Source: Psilocybe cubensis (taxonomy: Eukaryota). From it: a stretch of 64,000 nt of DNA. Both the position numbers and the translations under genes were made by a program. The stretch spans positions 1,736,001 to 1,800,000 of the forward strand of contig CM039009.1 in NCBI GenBank assembly GCA_017499595.2, given 5' to 3'. Every line of letters begins with the position of its first letter. Position 1 is the first letter of the stretch. This document shows positions 3,453 through 42,613 of this stretch, in pieces. Under the pieces are notes generated by a model. The model did no database searches and was not told the origin of the DNA. It saw only the letters and a program-made list of their open reading frames with translations.

Positions 3453-4146
3453 TCAAAGGTTTGTGTTTCTTCTCGTTCATTGTTTCGTTCAAACGCGCTT
3501 AACTCAACAGAATGTACATTTCCGTTTTTTTCGGCGCACTACAGCCGTATAACACGATATTTTGAAATTTTCAGAGCCATTTATTGTATATACTATCATC
3601 TTGGAATGCCAGTGCATTTGTATTGTATCTGAGTTTTGTTGATACATGGACTTCAGCACTAATAATATGTTGAGTTATTTTTTTTGGCTTGGTTTGTATC
3701 ACCACCACCTCCATCGACTTATTGTGTACTTTGTATAAAAAATATCCTTTGTCACGACAACTTCGCCAACACTAATTCGCCTTGCACTGCGTTTTTTTGT
3801 AAAAACATGCTTTTTATTCTTAATTTCTTTTTTGTAGGGTAAGGCTAGAGCGGTCTAGTATTGAGGCCTTGGAAGTGTTGTGCAGATAATGGCGTAAGTA
3901 AACGGACCTATAAACACCAGGCAATAAGCGTTTTTTAAAAAATACGAACAAAATTTGTCAACGTCATACAAGAAGATATTTAGAGTTACAACTATTTTAC
4001 CTACAGTGGTTCCACTTGCTTAGAAGTTTCGTGTCATACGCAAAGTTGGAAATATGGATCCGACATTTAACAACGTTTAAAGGTCAATCTATTTGTCTAA
4101 GTACATGTACAACTTGATATTCAACACACCATCAACCTGATCATTG

Positions 4147-5725
4147 TCATATAGATGTGGCCCAACTCCATTTTTCTCTGTTGAAGTCGGGCTGTATCTC
4201 ACATTCTCTCCGCTTCGCAGGGTCGGCTCGCCATATACGAACCACTCCAGCTTCCGCACATACGGCCAAAGAGTTGTAAGACCAATCCACTCCGTATGAG
4301 CTTGATGACCCCCCTCTCAATCTCACAGCATGCGCTGGACTGACATCTAACCGAGTGTCGCGCGCGACACTATAAATGAAAGCATCCCCGTCTCGAGACC
4401 CCATGCCGTGTACTAACCATCGACCGCATGGCGAGACCGACATTTTCGCGTAAAACGAAGTGGTCCCCCCCAAACCATCAAAGGATATCGGGTTCGCACA
4501 TAAATTTAAATCCCGTGCACAGTACACGTATATCTTTGCGTCGATACCAAATCCAAATACAATGCCTTCTGATTCACCGATACCCATCACGAGCGATACG
4601 ATACCCCTAGACCGGTGATAGTTATACAAGCCTGGGTCCAAGTTAGAGCGTAATAGATACTGGCTAGTCGATCTGAAATCCCACAACCGGAGAAAACTAA
4701 CAGCGAAAGTGAGTCGTGCTTCCTAACACATGTTACAACACTCACCCATTAGCAGAACAACTACTTATTACACCATGAGTAACATTGTCATGCGGTACGA
4801 GTCCCGTGATAGTGGGCTCCAGAGAAGCTTTGACTGCCTTGTGTGCATGAGAAATGGTTGCGACGGGTCTGATACCTGTCAATCCCGAAGATAAACGAAC
4901 CGAAGGTTCCACTCGCAAGTCCCACAAAGATATAGTGCCTTCTCTATCTCCAGTGTATACAAGTGATTCGTTCGTGGGATGCCACAAAACACACTTGACA
5001 GGTTCGCAGTGTCCGTGTAACCGATGCGTTATAAACCGCTCTTCGACAGTCACAACAAACCCGCCGGGGTGATAGTCGCCCGTATATTTTGTATGAGTAC
5101 ATGTTCCGACTAACAACGACTTATCATCTCCCTTCCACTTTAGATCGCTGATGTAGGACGAATGTTGCGTGACCAACCGTCCTCTAGGGTCTACACGAAA
5201 TAAACAGAAAAGCGCAAATTCGAGATCAGTGTTAAATTGCAACGATCAAGAATATCGACAACTACCACATTCCGATAAACACTTCCGCCGCGTATCAAGT
5301 ATTTTGACGGCTCCGCTGAAGGTGCCTATCGCAAGCAATGACCCACTACCAGCTTTAGAGACTACACACAAATGCGAGTTATACGCATTGATAAGCAGCG
5401 CAGTATAAGTCCTGTTACATACCATTTGAATACGAGCAAACAGAGCGTCTATCAAACGATCCGCACCGGTAATCGACACCGTTAAAAGTGTCCGAAATAT
5501 TTGAAGACACAAACGATTTTAAAAACGGTAAACGAGAGACTATATCACGGGTAAAAATCAGTACTGGGTCGTATCGGATCCATCCGACACAAAAACTGTA
5601 CCTCTACAACCAGTGCGATACACAGTAGTAGACAAAAAACATCGTTGCATCTGACCATCATGGAGGGTCCGTGTGCTAACTCTTCTTTCAGTATTGACGG
5701 GGATATCTTTATCAGTTCCAGACAT
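4147..5725 (-). CDS. cdt2: Divergent Cdt2/DTL-like WD40 protein (CRL4 substrate receptor paralog)
   Basis: Five exons splice in frame from ATG 5725. Cdt2-type blocks: LPFLKSFVSSNISDTF, CSYSN, LLAIGTFSGAVKILDT, GDREGTISLWDLR, FYAKMSVSPCGRWL, GVVRIWRAD and C-terminal KWSWA. Confidence 0.82.
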
Positions 5726-6109
5726 AAATCAACAATAAATCGATCTCCGGTCTTTTATACAACGAAACGTAGACACACAGAAATCTAATTCACATACATT
5801 ATTATCAAATAGTCGATAGTTACTAGGCCTTGAACAGCCCGAAACAGCCTGATCATCAAAATATGTCAATAAGATTACGATCAGCAATGTCCATGACAAA
5901 TATAAAATGGTCATCACCTTTGACGTTCCATGACAACGTAAGATATTCTGATGAACATAAGAACTTGTCAATAAAAACTAATGTTTAATCGATAAACGCG
6001 GTGTGCTATATCCACTGACTCCCTTCATCGGCCGATCATTCACTAGACGTCACGTCCTGTCTGTGTGGTGATTGTCAAATTGCAAGAAGAGAATGTTCTC
6101 GGACGCAAC

Positions 6110-6600
6110 TCAGTGACTTTTTAACACTTCTGCAATTGGAAGTTGAAAATCTGTAGTTGCAATTGTTAGAATGGGTTATTAATATTAAACACCAGAAACA
6201 TACCGTAGCAAGAGCAGTGTCGATCTGAAAAAAGGTCAGCTTTACGAACTTTTAGTGCAAAACAAAAACTCACATAGTCGGTGGTGATGTAACCACTTCC
6301 CTTAGTGTTCTTCGAGTTGCTGACGCGCAGGTAACTCTGGATGTTGAGGACAGACAAGACTCCATATGGAGACATGACTGTGAAAACGAGGCTGAAAGCA
6401 TCACGGTAGGTGTAGTCGGTACCTGGAATCAAAATATGCAAAGATTGGCATTGGTTTGGCGGGACAAAAACGAGTCCGGAACTTAATGCGGACGGTACCA
6501 GTGAGATCAGAATGCGTAGTAGCTAGAAAAATGTTTAGAGCAATGTCCTATACGGAGACATGTATGATAAATACCTTGAGTTACAACTCCTTGGATCGAG
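6110..6600 (-). pseudogene. Spliced hypothetical gene, probably frameshifted
   Basis: Exon-like ORF (HILIPGTDYTYRDAF...GYITTDY) bounded by GTGAGT/GTATGT donors. Apparent 1-nt frameshift near 6455. Confidence 0.28.
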
Positions 6601-6634
6601 GAATGAATAGAATTTAGAGTTAAGAGTGACACAA

Positions 6635-7475
6635 TACGGGCCATACACCATCCCCACATTCATCTGCGCGCTCATCTCATGGACGCGCGCGCTCAGCTCG
6701 CCCTTGCGCGTCTCCTAAGCCTTCATGAGCGTCTCGAACGCGCTGAGGAGTTGCTTCCACGCGAAATTGTCCCAGGCCCGATCTCCACCTTGTGTGTACG
6801 GATATAATTGCGCGAGTGCGGTTCACCCGACGCAGAGACACCGTACCCGAACGTTGGAAGGGTACAACACCACCGGCGCTACTGTCGTAGCTCTGACCCA
6901 AGCTGACCCCACCATCCATCCTCGTTGCGCTTACCACTGTAACTACTGTTGCTGCTGTGATTGATTAGCTACCCGATGGATGAGTACGAGTCGAACTGCA
7001 TGACGTATCCCGGGTTGTTGTAGCTGCTACTGGACGGGTTTGTAGGCGCTCGGGTTGCCCTGCTACTACTGGCCTTGGAGGTAGCTGTAGCTGCTGCCGC
7101 AGACGTGCGCTGCGAACTGTTGGCCAAAGCTACTTAACGACTGAAAGGGTATGCCACCGCCGCTGCCTGTATGTGATGGGTAGAGCTGTACCCAGAGAGA
7201 TATCCGGCACCGCTGCCTCTCATCGAGATACAACCGCCCATCTACTGCTGCGGTACGTATCCCATGGTCATTTGGGGCTGTTGCTGTTGCTGCTGTTGTG
7301 GGTACTGCTGGTACATGCCCTGTTACTGTTGCTGCGGGGTGACGGGGCTCATCACTGCAGAACCCTAGCCACCATACTGTTGCTGCTGCTGATTTGTGAC
7401 AGGAGGGCTCGAGAGGTCTGGGAATCGCGCACTGTGATTGGATCCGCCATCAGCTATAAAAGGGATGTTGGTCAA
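6635..7475 (-). pseudogene. Decayed copy of a conserved Q/P/S-rich basidiomycete hypothetical gene
   Basis: Translation: (L)TNIPFIADGGSNHSARFPDLSSPP..QQQQQYGG*..GGGIPFQSLSSFGQQF..FDSY..EPHSRNYIRTHKVEI..WDNFAWKQLLSAFETLMKA*ETRK. Many in-frame stops and frameshifts; TTG at the expected start. Confidence 0.65.
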
Positions 7476-9012
7476 AGACTGGTTCGCGCTGTAACCGGAG
7501 TACATCGATAGCGCAGGGAGTTGTAGATATGAAGAGATATGGGTAGTTGGATGAGTCTAAAGGACATGACTGCGTATTAACCGCGAGCCGTAAAAGGTGA
7601 AAACTCACAGTAATAGATAGATTGGGCAGCAGTAACGGATTTTTCGAGTTAGTAATAGCCATGCTATGATAAGGTTTTGATGAGAAATACTATCCAGAGT
7701 TAAATAAGAAAGAAAACAATATGGTTGACAGTGGCAGTGCCAAATGTGAAGCCAGATGGGACACTGGACAATAAAGGTCGAGTTGTAACCAATACAAAAA
7801 AATGTACTTACTAGACTCTCAAAGTCAACGGATAGTTCTTGCGGTTTTGGTTGATGGGTATTCTTGGGCCGGCAACAGTGATAGCAATGCGGTCGACTAG
7901 TAAATGCGTGTCAAATTTGAGTTTCATATGAAAAAGACAATGTATGAATGAACGGCTGAGAATGTATTAGGTGATTCCTGGAGGACACCCCGAACCATTG
8001 ACACCAAGAGACATGCTGCTGTAGCGCGTTCAGTGAAAGCAAAGAGAGGATATGTCAGGTATAACATACATGTTGAAGCCCGGAAGTGCTGGGACAACGA
8101 TTGGAATAGTTCTAGAGCGACGGGACATAGACGGAGGAGACAGGCATTGTCAAGTGCGCCGGGGACATTAACTAGCATCTGGAGCTGTTGGTTGATGAGG
8201 GAGGAAGGGGCGTCGGGGATACAGACCAACAGGATGGTGCTGCTGGTCGTGGAAGGAAGTGGAGAGGAGACGGTTGTATAGGGACGGAGCGGTAGCGGGT
8301 GTGACGACGACCGGCAGTGCGATGCTGCTGGTTGTTATCAATTGGATGGACAGCGACACGACTTGCTGTTCAACATAGTAAAGCTGGGATACATAGAAAT
8401 AGCTTAGAAACTTGAGTCAGAATCCGTGTAACGTACCAGGAGGGCCTCCTCTCTATATGGGCCCCTTACATTGCCTGACCGTCACTTTCTGTGTCATCTC
8501 CGTCGTCGGTGGTCGACCCTAATATGGCCAGCCAGAGTGAGGTTGAGTCCGAACAAGAACAATTTAAAACACGTCACCTGATTGGCATCGTGGATTCGTG
8601 CTACCGGTCATTGAACAGTTTAGCAGCGGTAGGACAACAATTAGCAGTGCTTTATATGACTGGCCTTCCCATGCCACTCAATACTCAACTATTCACCATA
8701 GTCCTGAAAAAGGTTATAAATCTACGATTGAAACAGATATCTTGGTTGTGGGTGTGTATAGCGAAAAAAAAACATGCCATGGTCAATTGAATACTACTAC
8801 ATACAAGACCCGACAACGAACAAGTTTTCTCGTTAATGTAACAATGGTATCAACAATCAGTGTACACTGTAAATACAGCTAACTATCCATCCTTGGGATA
8901 TCTATATAAAAGCCAATGTTAAATAATTAACACCATAAAAATATGAAAAGGGGAATAAATAATTCACTTCATTCTTAATGATATAATACAAACAGAATAT
9001 CTAAAATCAAAC

Positions 9013-10328
9013 TCAATGGGTATATGGGTACATGCCATAGAAGGTCGTCATGTTGCCGTTTGCATCAAAAGAGTGGCACATACACTTGAACCTAAAAAGT
9101 TCATAGTTATGACCAGCGACGCGCTCGGGTGGGCCGACTCTACGAGGTGCAAAGAGGAACTGTGCATAGCGACTCAGTGAATGACACACTCGACCAAAAA
9201 AATAAAACATAAAACATAGAAATAAAAAAAGACACTTTACTGGATTATCAATCTCGAAATAAGGCGTAAAACCCAAATGACATAACAGACAATCGGCCGT
9301 AAACTCGATGTACCACCACATTTCAGTGTCGGTTAGCCCTATAATATCCAACGGGAAGAGCTCTGTATGTATGGAATGTTACCATCAACTTAAAATGTGA
9401 ACATGGACATGTCACATACCTAAAACCATTTGTTTCTCGATGTCAACGGCACGAAGAACGATCTGCATGACATGGCTCTGGCACGGCTTCTTGGAAAACC
9501 CGGAAAATAAGTGACAGACAAAGTCCAGGAATAAGTGGTTAGATGATTGTATCATCGTTATCGCATGACTAAGTTCCGGTACCTCGACCAATGCGTCCGA
9601 GCTCGACAGTATAGTGTAAGCGGAAGAGTTGAAGATACCAGCGCTGACGGCCAGAGCAAGCACCCGATCCACGAGGGAACCGTTAGCATTCGCGGACGTT
9701 TTAGATGCCCATGTCATTACCCAGTCTTGCATCTGAGCATAATACGTAGACCCGTGTATGGCAGAGGATATACGGTCCATCTCGGCATAGTCGGTGATCA
9801 AACCAGACATGAGTTCAGATATAACACCATGGTATATATTTTCACTGAATAGTTCAATCGTCAGTTCATAAGAAAACAGAGTACATGGATAAGACAGACT
9901 TCATAGTACGAACGTCCATAGCACATCGCGCTTCAAACAGGTCAAGGGATTGATATATACTATCAACTATCGGTGACCTGCCCAAACGACGTGGTAATAA
10001 CACCATCAATGCAAGACCGAATATATGGCGCTGGTCGTGGTCGAGTTCAAGATCCCAACTTTCTGTCAAAGTCTCGAGGTCGATGGTGTCTACAGTCCAG
10101 AAGGAGCTCGACATTCGCTTATATACATCCCAAGTCTAGAATTTTAACAGAGATTTAGATGGCGAATTGAATAAATAAAACAAAAATAAAAAAGGAGAAA
10201 AGAGAGGAGAAGAAGCAATACAGAAGAAAAAAAAAAAAAAAAAGAAAAAAAAAAAAAAAAACCGGAGACTGTAAGACCTTTTCGGAACTCGAGGACAGTA
10301 ATGTAAAGTGAGTGGGTCTGTCGATCAT
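9013..10328 (-). CDS. Ribonucleotide reductase small subunit (R2)-like protein, predicted catalytically dead
   Basis: Spliced product aligns colinearly to R2: WDVYKRMSSSFWTVDTIDL, FEARC, ENIY, DRVLALAVSAGIF, RAVDIEKQMV, YIEFTADCLL..LG...NP. Ancestral ATG at 10940 is separated by a MITE; the second Met at 10328 remains. Confidence 0.82.
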
Positions 10329-10329
10329 A

Positions 10330-10921
10330 AGATTGGGCTCATCAGGAACCAGCACCCCCTTAGGTAAGCAAAAGTTGGCTTACCTCCGAACCTTTTCAAC
10401 CCTTCTGCACTCACACTATTCTACATTTTTGAACCACAGATATGTAGGTTATGCTTCTTTGAACACATCTGTGGTTTTTTTTTTCAAAAAAATTTTGATC
10501 TCAAGAAGTTATAAAGATTTTAATTTTTTTCCTTTTTTTTTAGTCTAACACGTCAGAAATGGTGTTTTCTCGAGTTTGGGAGATTTTCGAAAATTTGACA
10601 ATGTTCTTTTGGCCGCTTATATAATGGTACACGTGACCACACGTGACAATAAGTCACGCCTAAGTAATACCTCTCAGACTCATTATGGACTTCCAGAGAC
10701 TACAATTTGACCTCTGAGGTGTAATTCTATTATTGTGGGCATAAAGGCTAGTAGTAAGGATTGTATATGCACATTTATGAATTTTTTTTTTTTAAACTTT
10801 TTGTCTGAAACCATTTTCCGTCAACATAACTTTTGATTTTTTTTTCGAGCTGGATTTTGGCCGCTCTTGGCGCCAAGCCCATTGATTACGTAAGGGTGCT
10901 GGTTTCTGATGAGCCCAATCT
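10330..10921. mobile_element. MITE (592 bp) with 28-bp TIRs and TA target-site duplication
   Basis: Left TIR AGATTGGGCTCATCAGGAACCAGCACCC; right TIR reverse complement AGATTGGGCTCATCAGAAACCAGCACCC (27/28 match). TA at 10328-10329 and 10922-10923. AT-rich non-coding interior. Confidence 0.9.
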
Positions 10922-12447
10922 TAGACTTGGTGAGCGCCATGGCTTAATGTTATGTATAATCTATGAAAAGTAAACATACAACTTGAAGGAGAGTTGCTCT
11001 TATACTGTACCGACCAGAGCCTAGACCAAGATATTTGCACGAACTGTTAGTTACATATAAAATAAAACGAGATTTAACCAGGATGACGCGAGCACTATTT
11101 ATAATCGTGCTTAGTAATAACAATAAACCATCAAAAAATGCTGACCGACTCACCGTTGCGTAGGTGACATAGATCATTACAGTTACCCTCGTAATATCAT
11201 AGTGGAACTCATCATATAGCTGTTAAAGTGATCGGCAAACGTGATCATCATAAGAAATGGTTGTCTCTGACGCACCAATGAAAGATAACAAATAAACATT
11301 GCGTTGCGCTGATAGTTGTTGATGTGGATACTGTTGTTAGCGGAAGAGGTAATGGCTTGGTTCGGAGGGAGACAAGATAGAAGGATATAAACGGCGTAAC
11401 ATTGATTGATTACTGCCACGGAAATGGCCAGCACAGTAACCAGTCAGACTTCTGGTAATGAGAATGGACGATGGTATGATATTGATGTAAAACGACCAAC
11501 GTACTTTGATAAAGTATCATTTTGTCATCAATATTGTTCGACTGGAATGTCGTAAAAGAAGGATGGACCATAATACGCGTTGTTACACACTAGTTGATAT
11601 TTAGAAGACTCGAGGCGCGGTGCCGATGATATATCATATCGATATGTAAACCGAGTTGGTTGCGCATTGTATTTCATGCAGGGACTATTGGACAACGTGA
11701 CGAAGAACGCGACTATCAGCATCGAAACGGATGATCGGGATGACATAAGTGTTGACCAAAACGAAGCGGTACGGCGCGGGTACCCATATGACACGTGACT
11801 CTGCGGCACCAGTAACATAACGTAATCAGATGACACGACCTACCATTGTTGACTCTTGACACAACCTTGCTCAGACCACGCAGGTTCGACCACGACCGAC
11901 GAACGAAATGAAGCATAATGAAGGAGGCAGGAGTTAGAGTACAAGAAAGGGAGACCCATGTAGGAGACCCCAATGGTGCGTCATATAGTTCCAATTTAGA
12001 TTTTATAGGTTCAAACTTGCAAACTCAACAAGTAGATATATCCACCGCTTCCACTGAGGCCTCGAGCTGGGAAAAGGACAGATTTGCTGACGATGTCCAC
12101 GTCACAATCCACTCCGTTATGTCAAGAGCGGAGCTGGGGTGATTCTCCTCATCACCATCACTCTCCTCACTGTCCGCCCTCCACACCAACCGTCGACACA
12201 GAGCCTTCAACCGAGCGGCTGTCAAGATACACCGTAGACACGAAGGTATCTCTGACGCGCGCGCGCGGCTGTGTGCGTTCGTGTTTGTGTTGCTCACGGG
12301 CGACACGACCTGGCACCGGCGGAGGATGCGCACGGAGGGCGTTGTCCTAACTTGCATCTGCCTCTCTACCTTTACGCCATCTCCCTCATGTTCTACTCTC
12401 CTACAGGGCGAGAAAAGCGAACCTGGCCATTTCACATCAACTGACAC

Positions 12448-13974: not shown

Positions 13975-15296
13975 TCATCTATTCGAGTATCTAGCTATAG
14001 AAGCCTGTAACACGGACAAAGGTTCTGGGTTAATGTACAAAACATCCCAAAATAACGAACTGTCTTTATCGAAGTCGGGGTACAGCTCATCGTCATCACC
14101 AGAGTCAACGCAAATTTTGTTAGTCTGCTCCCATCCGCCAGAGTAAACAGACTTGGCCCATTTTATCATCCCAAAATTGACCGACACCAAGTTTCTCCGG
14201 CTCTCTGCTGCTTTGGTAATATGTATACCCTGAACCTTAAGATGATCGGGTCCGGAACCAACTGGAATAATTACTGGTGTCGTGATAGTCCAGTCGTTAA
14301 ACTGCAGGAGACGCGCCTCTCGAAATAGAGGAGGGTCTAGTGTCAGCATCAACGACGCTTCCTATCCGGACACCAAGTATTTCAACAAAGAATCAGTACA
14401 TACAAGAAAAATTAATTATCGGAAAACAACTCACCAATGCATCAAGCTTCGGACTCCGTACAGTTAGAGATTTGATGTTTGGGAAGGCATTCCCCAGACG
14501 GTAAAGCGATGTCCCGATACGCGAGTACGATTCCACAAACTGAAGTGTAATACACAGTATAGACAACGAAGTGTTAGGAGTCCCGGTAGGTGCCATTTCA
14601 TTGAGGAAGAACGTGAAGCTGTCGTCATCCATCGCTTCTGTTAAACATATTTTGACGAGCACGCTCTTTATACTAATGAATCTGATAACTTTGATATCTC
14701 CGTGAAGGTTGAACTTCTTCAATTTCGGGAAATTACAGAAGGTTATTGGACTATCGACGACGCGAAGCCTTTTATCGTCCAGGCGGATAGCGTCGGCGTA
14801 AGTAGACTGGATGGGATGTACTGAATATCTGAGCATATATTTCAGAAAAGGTGATAGTTGAGTTCGCATGATCATCGTCAATGATTCAACGTTCGCGAGA
14901 AATGGTACCGCTCGACGCAGTAACGCGTGTGTGATGCTCACGTCGTTGTTGGTCGATACAGTGTATTGAAGCTCCTTGGTGTAAGTTCCATAGCTTTCGG
15001 TCGACTCTATGATCGTCTTGAAGAAACGTTTCGCACTAGAGTCGTACACAGAGACGTCGCGATATAACTGCCTGGAAACAACATCGTGCAAAGCCCATCC
15101 AGTGCATAGAAGAGCGTGCTGGTCTCTCCGAGGTAGATAGCGTGTTATCTCGTCCAAAAGCTCGTTCGCCAGACAAGGGAGCGATGTCTTATTGAACCTA
15201 AACGGGACTAAAACCAAAAGGGTAACAAGAATAACATTTAGCCGAAATCTATACCAAGGGTATACGAAAATCGAAGATCACACCTGATAGAGTCAT
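13975..15296 (-). CDS. F-box protein with LRR-like C-terminal region
   Basis: MTLS|VPFRFNKTSLPCLANELLDEITRYLPRRDQHALLCTGWALHDVVSRQLYRDV is F-box-like. LxxLxL repeats follow (FPKLKKFNL, FPNIKSLTV). Two GT-AG introns. Confidence 0.75.
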
Positions 15297-30099: not shown

Positions 30100-30760
30100 C
30101 ACCCGAGATACATTGCAAAGTCCGATTTCCACGGTACTCTTGGTCAGGGTGTACCACTAGTAACTACCCTTGGAGCTACTGCACAGAACCTAATGCACAC
30201 CATATCGGTAACACGGCCACCAATGGCATGGATGTCGGTAAATTCCAGTGGATACATCTGGAGCAGGACTACACGAGCGAGTGTTTACTACACGTAAAGA
30301 CACACTGACTTTCAACCAGAATGTTCACCGAATGCATCCCGTCGTGTAAACTCTTTCCTCGAGAAAGCAACGGTATCATTATACTACCTTTACCATCCCG
30401 ATCCAATAACAAGTTCAACGCTCGTATGTACAATTCAACACAGTTCAACTCACATCTCTCATGGAGTGCGTAAAAGATCATTCTCACTGTGCGTGCACAG
30501 AATACTCAGGGAAGAAAGAAAATGTTTCGACGTACAACGACCGAGTGAGACCTGGATCGATAAAAAAAAAGGAATGCATCCAGACCACTACGAACGCTTT
30601 GGATATGTCGTACATAAATTCATCTAACAGCGCCCGCAATGAACTAGAAAGGACGCCACAGAATACCGGCGCATCTTCGAAAAAGCGAGGTACGTAAATA
30701 ATTAACACGTCAAAACATATAGCGAATTGAATACAACTAGATCCGGGCAAAAAACACAAT
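30100..30760 (-). CDS. Possible hypothetical gene
   Basis: Exon-like ORFs YVPRFFEDAPVFCG... and ELYIRALNLLLDRDGKG... Boundaries unresolved. Confidence 0.28.
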
Positions 30761-30935
30761 GACACAAACAACCCAGTCGTTGCTGGAGGGACAACCAAAG
30801 ATTCTATATTTGTTAATACAACGCACAAACAGTATAAAAACTCTAAGAGGATGACACCGAGAACGAGAAGACAGGAATATATTGTAGACGACACAGAAAC
30901 GCTACCATTTAGGTTATACGCATCAGGAAAGTAAT

Positions 30936-32432
30936 CTAGTTTAACTTGACACGCGAAAATTTCGTGAAAAACCGATGGCGTAGAGCGGATTCGATAGTGA
31001 GTCTGCGATGAGGGTCGACTGCAGTACACATAGATATAAATTCCACTGCGTCTGACTGGTTGATTGATTTCTAACAATGCATTTAATCATAGACTTCACG
31101 GTTCACGAACGCTCGAGGTAACACACCTTGAACCACTTGACATCGGCCACATGGCGCAAAAGCTTGTTGCGAACTTTAGCATTGATTGCTGCGCCACGGA
31201 CTTTCGGGACCCTAGTTTTAGTTCGGAATATCGCTGGATGCATTTCACTGATATCTTGAGCCTGACCCGGAGCGAAATGTCCAAGCAGCCTCTCCATACA
31301 GAAAAAATACTCCCGAACATCATCTGTCTTCGGAAACAATGACAAACCCGTAAAGATCTCGAATGTTAAACATCCGACAGCGAAGACATCGACAGGGAAA
31401 CCCCAACCGACACCTATAGAAGCGTATAATCAGAAATGTAAGGAGTATCGGAAAACGTCATACCCACCACCATACACTTCCGGAGCACGATACCCCATTG
31501 TACCGGGGACAAAATGGAGGTTACGAGGACTTGTGACAGAATCTTCGAGGTCAATGATTTTGATTTGGACATTAGACACAACGTTCTTCAAACACGTATT
31601 CTTTAAGCATTGTAATGGTCTAATTGACAAGAATTGTGACGTACTTTGTTGTAAAAAGCGCCATCTGGACTGATATCAGACACAGTAGTCGTTTGGTCAT
31701 CGACGAGAACGACGTTCTCAGGCTTGATGTCCGTATGCGCTATATCCAACGTATTATGTAGGACTAAATGTACATGAATATCTGACGCAAAGTAATCACC
31801 ATAAATTGAAAACACTCACATGCCACACCGTTACATACTTGCCACATTATGGCCTTGATTTGGAACAAAGGAAGGGGAAGCACATTTTCCTTTGTTATCA
31901 TTTCCTTGAGATTCATTCCATACAATTCGAATACGAGACAAGGATGACGGAGGTGAAAGACAGTTTCCGCCAGACCACAAATAAAACTGAAGTACAATGA
32001 ACTACAGTGAATAATGGAATCGACCAAAAGAAGAAAATACTCACCTTGCATCCACAGATGAAGAATTTTTCAATAATGCAGATACGTGCGCGGCACGGGT
32101 GGCCCGCACACTCTCACCGACGGTATACATAACTTTAATCGCGACGACGCGGGCACAGCTTTTACTTTCGCATCTCCACACTTCACCAGAGTATCCGGAA
32201 TTTATTAGTTCGACGGCAAGATCTCAAAATAATAATAATAAAAATTTAAAAAATGAGGACGATGATAAGTAGAGAAAACACAGTAAGTTAATCAAACTAC
32301 TTACAGTCGTCTGCTATGACGTCGTTCTTCTGGACATTTGATGACCTGCAACCAAGTTAAATACACGACAAACAAATACAGAGAAACATACACAAAGTTT
32401 TCAGACCCACTGGATGACTGATTGTCATCCAT
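30936..32432 (-). CDS. Divergent CMGC (LAMMER/CLK-like) protein kinase
   Basis: Spliced motifs: SGYSGEVW, VAIK, HPCLVFELYG, HTDIKPENV, IKIIDLE (DFG variant), GTMGYRAPEV, WGFPVDVFAVG, EYFFCMERLLG (cf. EHLAMMERILG) and DPHRRLTIESALRHRFF. Confidence 0.85.
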
Positions 32433-32656
32433 ACCAAATAGAACTGGTAGTTAATCAAACGACTGTTCGCGTAGGTACGTAGAGGAGTTCGGTCCATTAT
32501 AAGCATATAGTACCCTACATCATTCAACTTTTTTCGAACAAAGAACAATACAAAACAATCGAATAGCACGTCATCCCGATGACCCTGATCCAATCCCAGA
32601 CCAGTTACGTGACCAGTTCATGACGCGTTATGTGGCGAATCAACTGACCACCCTTC

Positions 32657-32759
32657 TGACTAATCAACACTTTTTTGCCCACCGGGACCACATGGTTCTA
32701 AGTTTGTCAAAACTATTGACTAACGACAAAAACTACTGACAATGTTAATGACTAATCAA
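32657..32759. promoter_or_regulatory. Repeated TGACTAA motifs in the divergent kinase intergenic region
   Basis: TGACTAA at 32657, 32717 and 32749, two of them as TGACTAATCAA. Matches a bZIP/Yap-type site; function not shown. Confidence 0.3.
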
Positions 32760-33246
32760 TAAGAAAATATAGAATACGACCATTCACTTACCACTCAGTG
32801 AAGAGTAATACACACTCTCATCGTTCCCTACGTTTCTGTAAACGTTGGTCATAGTAAAGAAACAATTTTCTTCATCTTCTTCTTTTTTTTTCCTAAATAT
32901 TCAAATTTAATGATAATATAATATTATTCGGGTTGCTGACGTTTATGAATGTTCAACAAACGGTCATCAAATGATTAAATTTACATTACGAGCATTTTGT
33001 TCTATATCAGATTTCAGATTTTCCCATCACGACCAATAATCATTTACCATAGTACTTCGCACAGGTCTCACCGCAGACATCAACAGGAGAGTAACGGAAA
33101 ACTCACGCGTATATCACAGTCTGAAAGTCTACGACGGAATTGTATTATACGCACCCCTTCGACCGGCTGGTTCGAACCGATAACCGACTCCGAAAAATAC
33201 ATAAGACTCACGCATAGTAAACACTCTACATATACAAGGTACAACT

Positions 33247-34720
33247 ATGCCAGAGATATTGTGGACTATCAACACACCTCCGAGGTATGTAACACACTCA
33301 GGAATAACATTCCATGACATTTACAATCCGCTTTATATAGGTTCCCACAGAATAAAATGTTATGCAATCGTTGTGAGCGTATAACACGAGATTATGACAT
33401 ACATGACATTAACAAGTCCGACGCCGTAATACCCAGATACGATTAAACATATCCTACACGAAGGCAGATCGTCCCAGCTAGTGCAAGCAAAGGACATTAT
33501 AGACAAGACCATGAAAATAGTAAGAACGGTTTGTCGGACCCGAGCCACGGACATTATGATAGCCACTGAGTGTGAATGGCTTCGAGCGATAGGGGAAAGC
33601 AGTGGAAGGTAAGTGGCAATGACCATGATCAATGACGCTTGAAAATCTGTTGCCTCTTAGAATATCCAAGTTAATGGGATACCACACCGATAAAATTTAT
33701 TACTACTTGGTATTCGAGGCACCGACAAGAACATTAAGAGAAGTTCTGTCAACCCCAGAGCTTTACTTATCCGAGCGACACAAAAAAGAAATTGTATCCC
33801 AACTATTGCACGCAATCGACAGTCAGTAACAGCTCAACGACTTACTGTTCATAAACTAAAAACTCTTTAGGCATACACGAACACAGCATAATGCACAGAG
33901 ACATATCACCGGATACTATAGATTTCGTCAACGGCAACGTGATCAAAGAGAAGTGGTATAACTTTTTCATCGGTCAATTCGACACAAGGGTAAAACTCTA
34001 CCTTACTACTCAAACGGCGCTGTCATTCATGTTCAATACACAGAAAGTACTGGCAGCAACTAAACTACGACTTTCATTTTATGGATACACTACCGAGGAA
34101 ACACGTCTAACGGACCGTACGGAACAATATGCATCACCGGAAGTGGTCTATGGTAATGTTTTAATAAATTACTGTAAATTCATGACAAATGTATTCACCC
34201 GTTCCATATGACTCGATAGGTCTAGCAATCGGCAGACCAAATGATATCTTCTCGTTAGGTTGCATAATAACGGAAATATTCACCCGTGTGCCTCTTTTTC
34301 CTTCTTGTACCAGGTCACCATATTACAAACGGGACAAGACGCTTCTATACGACGCTATTCTAGGACCCTTCCCAAGCGGTCTCATTACACAGATAAGGAG
34401 ACCATATAGCCATGCTTTCACTTATCCTGATTCAACAACCCACCACACGACCCCATGTATATCAGACTCGATCAGAAAAACCGGAGATAAATCAAATACA
34501 TTAAGGGTAAGTACATTCCAAAATAAATAAAGAATACCAGAGCATGTCGCTAAATTCGATACATTAGAAACTAATTAAAGACAACGACGTACACACTGTG
34601 GTTAAGACTATGACCCGTCTCGATCCATTCGACAGACCAAGACCATCAGACGTTCTAGGACTTGCGTACTTCAAAGAACCGAACGTAAACGAATATGAAG
34701 AAGATCAGATCGAATATTAA
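33247..34720 (+). CDS. CMGC-derived pseudokinase
   Basis: Spliced: RYTIKHILHEGRSSQLV, KIVR in place of VAIK, YLVFE, HRDISPDTI, LRLSFYG in place of DFG, QYASPEVV, DIFSLGCIITEI, PLFP, LDPFDRP. Confidence 0.8.
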
Positions 34721-34942
34721 GATACAGAATTAGGTACTGGTGTATCGAATATGACATAGAACATATATACTGATTCGCAGACGCATCGATTAGTACTTGT
34801 CTAGTGTAGGCAATTGCATTAAGCGTGGCATTTACGAAGCCTTCTTTTGTGCTTAGAAATTTTGGTTATAATTTGCTATCTGGTTGACCGGTTCCGCCTT
34901 TACTGAAGTCTTCGCTGATATCCGAGCTCTTGCCCTCTTGAG

Positions 34943-42513: not shown

Positions 42514-42613
42514 NNNNNNNNNNNNNNNNNNNNNNNNNNNNNNNNNNNNNNNNNNNNNNNNNNNNNNNNNNNNNNNNNNNNNNNNNNNNNNNNNNNNNNN
42601 NNNNNNNNNNNNN
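42514..42613. other. Assembly gap (100 N)
   Basis: Run of exactly 100 N. Confidence 1.

Follow-up and report, generated by a model that had tools for sequence, protein, structure and literature searches.

This report concerns T1, a minus-strand gene derived from the small subunit (R2) of ribonucleotide reductase (RNR), and the giant Helitron2-type transposon that carries it in Psilocybe cubensis. The window, by which we mean the whole stretch of DNA that was analyzed, is 64,000 nucleotides long (GenBank assembly GCA_017499595.2, contig CM039009.1, positions 1,736,001 to 1,800,000), and plain coordinates below are those of the window. T1 extends from a natural ATG at 10940 to a stop codon at 9013-9015. 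The frame described in the original prediction, with five exons at 10328-10278, 10135-9900, 9844-9420, 9362-9241, and 9159-9013, is open as claimed, in that the exons of both genomic copies of T1 are free of stops and frameshifts; the start that it gave, however, is Met7. In the window copy, the first part of exon 1 (10924-10940, about six codons) is severed from the second part (10278-10328, from Met7) by a 592-bp miniature inverted-repeat transposable element (MITE) at 10330-10921, and the N-terminal arm encoded by the second part is eroded (HFTLLSSSSEK versus RFVLFPIQYHE). Exon 2 (9900-10135) retains SFWT, has lost the first ligand Asp, and reads AMDVR in place of FYGFQ. Exon 3 (9420-9844), with ENIY..VI, VSAGIF, and SSNHLF, has lost four ligands and the radical Tyr. 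Exon 4 (9241-9362), which holds helix H, YIEF.AD, and NP, is the best-retained part of the gene (15/30 identities to host residues 331 to 360), and exon 5 (9013-9159), in which the tail is replaced, is preceded by an 81-nt in-frame intron without a counterpart in host R2. The intron before exon 3 likewise has no counterpart in either host R2 gene. The earlier remark that splice sites persist is true in part: each of the four introns has GT-AG borders, yet introns 1 and 2 have off-consensus donors, and a long poly-T run lies within intron 1.

Database models support the gene and differ from our reading in its details. Model P0001 (321 amino acids), which its source database assigns to Psilocybe cubensis and which starts in the first part of exon 1, is 100% identical to T1 over exon 3 and matches mouse R2 with an E value of 3e-34 over residues 29 to 293 in a PDB sequence search, and model P0002 is the window's T1 variant, starting at Met7. 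Because the database models choose another intron-1 donor and another last exon, the C-terminal end of T1 is uncertain. In none of the T1 models (the window reading, P0001, P0002, and P0004) is there a TNFFEKR..Y or acidic-Phe tail, which agrees with the earlier claim that the aromatic tail that binds the large subunit (R1) has been replaced.

The residue calls for T1 rest on alignments with the host's two intact R2 genes and are given in mouse R2 numbering, in which we take the ligands and neighboring residues to be D139, E170, H173, Y177, E233, E267, H270, and D266. D139 is replaced by Arg or falls in a gap, E170 is kept, and the remaining ligand positions read H173Y, E233A, E267N, and H270F, so that one of six iron ligands is left; the radical Tyr is also gone (Y177I), as is the Asp of the RD motif (D266S). 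Among the Trp, Asp, and C-terminal Tyr that serve radical transfer in R2, T1 keeps the Trp, has Ser for the Asp, and has the tail Tyr out of register. Identity in the N-terminal arm is 4/21, and the acidic-Phe R1-binding tail is lost together with FYGFQ. SFWT, EARC, YIEF.AD, and NPF are all retained, the first three as originally reported. The alignments to both intact genes thus bear out the claim that five of six di-iron ligands and the radical Tyr are replaced, and since proper alignment does not restore the ligands, T1 is confirmed as a true pseudoenzyme rather than an alignment artifact.

What remains is recognizably an R2. Overall identity to host R2 is 28%, and the Pfam model Ribonuc_red_sm matches exons 2, 3, and 4 separately (E values of 1.2e-5, 2e-14, and 4.4e-5), which was the family match that had been suggested as a check. 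An AlphaFold (AF2) model built on a 95-row alignment has the R2 ferritin-like fold with a predicted local distance difference test score (pLDDT) of 85, a model that leans on the intact relatives in the alignment, and a Foldseek comparison with human R2 gave an E value of 3e-13 and a template modeling score of about 0.73. A single-sequence AlphaFold model (pLDDT of 36) was discarded.

T1 is one of several such genes. A search of the genome for the R2 family returned 30 matches. These stem from two R2 genes that are intact and from degenerate genes of four kinds, T1 to T4, present in two, two, five, and one copies, respectively. The intact genes lie head to head at G000:C4:2222400-2225500 (L001, L002, and L089) and are 81% identical in their core, with synonymous sites saturated. 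T1, T2, and T3 all lie inside the giant element, which therefore carries three ligand-less R2 genes, and T4 (G000:C12:1813800-1815050; L025 and L037) lies outside the mapped element, near a long interspersed nuclear element, and has an apparent GC-AG third intron. T1 to T4 have in common two introns without a counterpart in the host genes, the first immediately ahead of ENI/ENV and the second past the NP position, as well as a one-residue gap after the first ligand. Shared derived residues exceed those in shuffles for T3-T4 (16/88; reached in 0/2,000 shuffles) and T1-T3 (11/86; 26/2,000) and are not clearly above shuffles for T1-T4 (11/91; 129/2,000). Wherever ligand and Tyr positions can be compared, T3 and T2 agree in their changes, and T3 retains the arm (12/21), YFSFQ, and a tail-like ILDGQF. 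The original picture of a single gene was right as to the pseudoenzyme and overlooked its status as transposon cargo, the family of four ligand-less types, and the split by the MITE.

Has the dead fold been selected? For T3 and T2, the ratio of nonsynonymous to synonymous substitution rates (dN/dS) is 0.11 over 248 codons (dS of 1.74), and because the two agree in their changes wherever ligand positions can be compared, selection continued after catalysis was lost; this comparison, of the kind among homologs that the original prediction had proposed, does not look neutral. Synonymous sites of T1 are saturated, and for this reason, drift was simulated over 255 codons, starting from host codons and running until identity fell to the 28% seen in T1. 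None of 400 free runs was stop-free at either kappa (mean of 7.0 to 7.6 stops). Against drift runs held stop-free, T1 retains hydrophobic sites at 0.80 (maximum in drift, 0.78), its changes have a mean BLOSUM score of -0.46 that drift never reached, and it keeps 5/6 Trp residues, a number matched or exceeded in 3 and 6 of 400 runs. Identity also tracks conservation within the family (23/47, 33/87, 14/75, and 8/73). These results show that the fold of T1 was long under purifying selection, and we regard it as highly probable that T1 is selected dead cargo.

The window allele may nonetheless be silent or weak, because the MITE, a recent insertion, separates its promoter and first six codons from the rest of the gene. 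The MITE is flanked by a TA duplication (10328-10329 and 10922-10923), has terminal inverted repeats of 30 nt that are 97% complementary counting the TA, and has at least 36 further full-length copies at 99 to 100% identity among the 38 of 223 candidates that were scored. It sits between codons 6 and 7, so that the in-frame Met7 remains, and it is present in one of the two resolved T1 copies. The C2 copy lacks it, and contigs from runs X1 and X2 also join across the site; the C2 allele is unbroken. No variant in T1 exons was seen in runs X1 and X2 among the 40 of 74 differences listed.

The carrier is a giant Helitron. Positions 1 to 42513 of the window belong to a second copy, which breaks off there at a 100-N gap (42514-42613) and matches about 100 kb of the complete copy at 99.6 to 99.8%, with insertions of its own. 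The complete copy (G000:C2:518844-653522; 134,679 bp) is the sole gap-free one. Across the genome, the 5' end has six different flanks, and the 3' end, present at seven sites, likewise has six; the end sequences themselves are identical. There was no target duplication at the four sites with both ends read, one of which has T on both flanks. Gaps of 100 N or contig ends interrupt five or six copies, and the pieces that these have in common are identical. Their mutual identity may thus be an assembly effect, but their distinct flanks are not. At one end, the element encodes RepHel in an intact frame of 1,958 amino acids with Helitron_like_N, DUF6570, and PIF1, in reversed orientation; it begins with TGCCT and a hairpin with an 8-bp stem, and on its 3' side a short asymmetric inverted repeat of 11 bp ends 27 nt before the terminus. 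FoHeli3-5, for which no insertion-site preference was established, are described with matching ends, in that 5' TGCCT is followed by a hairpin and a short inverted repeat stands close to the 3' terminus, and with RepHel reversed (PMC5148889). DUF6570 is a marker of HLE2, and the FoHeli-like type is HLE2-reverse (PMC11417382). By RepHel domains, end structure, and sharp ends at several loci, the element is of the Helitron2 type (HLE2-reverse).

Some further observations concern the transposon and its relatives. Directly before the true 5' end of one copy (G000:C14:257618-257635; L067) lies a 17-bp copy of that end, similar to the duplicated 5' termini of FoHeli elements (PMC5148889). Other Helitron families on G000:C3, C5, C6, C10, and C20 have RepHel frames of up to 2,808 amino acids, about 27% identical to that of the element. 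Frames at G000:C2:516774-518786 (L040) abut the complete copy and, by their motifs, presumably resemble a KDZ-type transposase. Of six metagenomic loci with RepHel relatives, none had an R2 gene nearby, on contigs that were short and had short upstream flanks.

The element consists of two collinear sister units, each in the order RepHel (intact or relic), R2 derivative (T3 or T2), X (an unknown gene), kinase, kinase, Cdt2-like WD40, and end motif; T1 is confined to the first. In the window, the second unit's RepHel relic is represented by its last part, at 1-127 on the plus strand (about 78% nucleotide identity to the intact RepHel). The end of the first unit is marked at 3739-3850 on the minus strand by a degenerate version of the subterminal sequence of the element (79%). 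Between this mark and T1, on the same strand as T1 and about 3.5 kb downstream of it, is copy a of the Cdt2/DTL-derived WD40 gene (4147-5520, limits approximate). The element carries two such genes, with a dN/dS of 0.16 between them over 330 codons. Atlas annotation gives WD40 only. The best host match of this cargo is a single locus (L099; E value of 3e-15, with the next match at 1e-4), to which it aligns at 37% identity with WD[LF]R motifs retained, and the C-terminal exon of that locus has DTL as its top PDB match (3.5e-7, with the next at 2.6e-6, a modest margin over other WD40 proteins). Judged by these similarities, the WD40 cargo derives from the host Cdt2/DTL orthologue.

At 30298-34721 lie two divergent kinase genes, both of them paralogous to kinase genes of the second unit. 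The element holds four related kinase genes in all, and one paralogue in the C2 copy (G000:C2:620241-621528; L070) is CLK/LAMMER-like by best PDB match and has DLE in place of DFG. A Pfam scan of 120 element frames also returned F-box, GNAT, carboxylesterase, CSTF2-hinge, and ABC-2 matches, several of them below the cutoff. On the minus strand at 14393-15277, a 294-amino-acid frame has a start that looks F-box-like by eye and gave no Pfam match; similar frames occur elsewhere in the element. Pieces of 6095-8112 match contigs of two presumed-RNA runs, which do not cover T1, at about 90%, so related sequence elsewhere may be transcribed, and a frame within this region has a weak DUF4360 match. 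An R1 copy in the element was considered and rejected, as the genome has one R1 locus and it lies outside the element.

With exon 3 of T1 or of T3 as the query, homologue searches recovered just the protein itself (1/433 and 1/99 candidates, respectively), and T4 was absent from the profile-search matches. Of the other 148 proteins that the profile search listed, ligand differences occur in 26, a count that includes one protein differing only by an alignment gap. Ten ligand-deficient proteins were looked up, of which four can be named: one from Kazachstania, whose best PDB match is yeast Rnr4, and those from Galerina (five ligands lost), Auricularia (three ligands and the Tyr lost), and Suillus (two ligands lost), the last represented by three almost identical copies whose contigs differ in length. 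The proteins of Suillus (P0152, P0157, and P0158) and of Galerina and Auricularia (P0080; P0015) may be further transposon-borne cases. In two runs of quick trees, support for grouping the four ligand-less agaricomycete sequences was 67 and 30; long branches dominate these trees, which establish no clade, and the T1 branch itself is very long. T1 and Rnr4 are ungrouped, and a joint clade is not rejected (approximately unbiased test, P of 0.215), again with long branches.

Taken together, we favor a reading, at roughly 45% probability, in which T1 is an old metal-free and radical-free derivative of the RNR small subunit, carried as giant-Helitron cargo and acting by binding on the host R2 system. 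T1 would work by binding and not by chemistry, because the chemistry is gone while the fold has been kept. The most likely target would be host R2 itself or factors that anchor, inhibit, or degrade R2, and T1 would then be a decoy directed at host R2 or at R2 regulators rather than an activator of the Rnr4 type. Copying 135 kb outside S phase would presumably need deoxynucleoside triphosphates (dNTPs), and we speculate that T1 and its Cdt2-derived neighbor shift dNTP supply or S-phase control toward copying of the 135-kb rolling circle. In fission yeast, CRL4-Cdt2 degrades the RNR inhibitor Spd1 (PMC5448002). The narrower proposition that T1 serves the element as a noncatalytic binding protein aimed at RNR or replication control is tentative. 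A broader one is doubtful as it stands: by analogy with large DNA viruses, agaric Helitrons of more than 100 kb might keep a kit of host-derived regulators (dead R2, Cdt2-type receptors, F-box-like proteins, and altered kinases) with which they would impose both an S-phase-like state and a supply of dNTPs for rolling-circle copying, with T1 as a dedicated R2 decoy.

Several points weigh against our favored reading. Its weak point is that an inhibitor for T1 to titrate is not known in basidiomycetes, since Cryptococcus is without SML1 and DIF1 orthologues (PMC9431586). A search of the genome with RNR_inhib (the Spd1/Dif1 family) gave no match, and its control likewise matched nothing, so that this result carries no weight either way. 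When 1.84 billion representatives were searched by profile, nothing closer to T1 than ordinary R2 came up. R2-derived genes do die inside the element, as seen in the C12 copy of T2 with its two in-frame TAG codons, and T1 has no counterpart in the second unit. The MITE and the weakness of two splice donors hint that selection is slack today. Given the much other cargo (kinases, F-box-like, GNAT, and CSTF2 hinge), an R2 may stand beside a Cdt2 by chance. Finally, the drift test takes the host gene as ancestor, allows no indels, and compares against a score-optimized alignment that flatters the observed similarity.

One rival holds that T1 was once useful, so that its fold came under selection at that time, and that the gene today is a passenger at the onset of decay. 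The MITE in exon 1 of one of the two resolved copies, the off-consensus donors and poly-T run, the eroded arm and tail, and the stops in the sister gene T2, together with the lack of a T1 counterpart in the second unit, would all fit. However, both copies are free of exon stops and frameshifts, the differences listed for runs X1 and X2 spare the exons, and the MITE belongs to a young family that inserts widely; we judge erosion an unlikely account, if the best of the rivals. Might T1 instead be a co-opted ferritin-like scaffold with a job unrelated to RNR, as with M45/UL45? All RNR-specific features (ligands, Tyr, D266, tail, arm, and FYGFQ) are gone while core residues stay, and the branch is very long, but the best-kept segments, the SFWT loop and helix H, are those that we take to face R1 in class Ia enzymes, and a Cdt2-derived gene adjoins T1, so we consider this rather improbable.

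The original prediction's Rnr4-like chaperone has lost ground, and its decoy and dominant-negative alternatives stand as candidates. An activator that pairs with host R2 and aids assembly of the iron-radical center would accord with the H-to-Y change at H173 common to Rnr4 and T1 and with a sequence compatible with the R2 fold, but the set of three ligands, Tyr, arm, FYGFQ, and tail that Rnr4 keeps is lost or eroded in T1, the arm and FYGFQ presumably forming the R2 dimer face. The host, moreover, has two intact R2 genes, and T1 resides on a mobile element rather than at a fixed host locus. Such a role is favored for T3 over T1, because T3 keeps the arm, YFSFQ, and the tail-like ILDGQF and T1 does not; for T1, we think it very unlikely. 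Least credible is a neutral pseudogene since capture with a frame open by luck, which would suit the low identity to host R2 and the mostly drifting fragments captured by Helitrons (PMC4289320) but is largely refuted by the drift and dN/dS analyses above and by codon-position identities of 0.45/0.55/0.27.

Whatever the mechanism, the dead-R2 solution arose outside yeasts, and a selfish element can keep a ligand-less R2 under purifying selection. If T1 tunes host RNR, it would be a case of a eukaryotic transposon steering nucleotide metabolism and would offer a natural probe of R2 roles beyond radical making. The element is also several-fold larger than the sizes given in a 2019 review, in which 14 kb is the fungal upper size, 39 kb is the figure for maize, and whole-gene capture is exceptionally rare (PMC6431247). 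Full-text searches, covering main texts in a collection with few subscription journals, brought up neither a Helitron this large nor one that carries an R2 gene; large fungal elements may be listed in the supplements of PMC11417382.

How does this system compare with known ones? Ligand-less R2, in the form of Rnr4, and gene capture by Helitrons are already known kinds. Rnr4, the beta-prime subunit of Saccharomyces cerevisiae (PDB 1jk0_B and 1sms), resembles T1 in having an R2 fold without a usable di-iron site, in the His-to-Tyr change in the ENIH motif, and in its derivation from a duplicated R2. It differs in losing three ligands and keeping three along with a Tyr at the radical position, where T1 loses five and the Tyr; in keeping an RFVxFP arm, FYGFQ, and an acidic-Phe FDDDF tail, each lost or eroded in T1; and in being a fixed host ohnologue, where T1 is transposon cargo. 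By the features compared, T1 is not a member of the Rnr4 group. Rnr4 activates Rnr2 and stabilizes its iron center, with a conserved dimer surface (PMC2704937).

Among Helitrons, FoHeli3/4/5 of Fusarium oxysporum (HLE2-reverse; PMC5148889 and PMC11417382) share with the element the TGCCT start, 5' hairpin, DUF6570, and an inverted repeat that is short and asymmetric and stops 27 nt from the 3' end; in FoHeli4/5, RepHel is reversed as it is here. They measure about 9 to 11 kb against 134.7 kb, however, and the element adds whole intron-bearing host-derived genes and two diverged sister units. HELPO1 of Pleurotus ostreatus (PMC4289320) is likewise an agaric Helitron with extra genes but, unlike the 134.7-kb element, is 1.5 to 13.7 kb long and carries between one and four genes whose origin is unknown, and the word "ribonucleotide" does not occur in the main text of that paper. 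In its size, the element points to a basidiomycete counterpart of cargo elements on the scale of Starships, which it resembles as a giant cargo-carrying fungal element. Starships, in contrast, move by a tyrosine recombinase and are found in ascomycetes. The herpesviral proteins M45 and UL45 are catalytically dead R1 subunits; they too are dead RNR subunits kept by selfish elements, although there the subunit is the large one and the elements are animal viruses.
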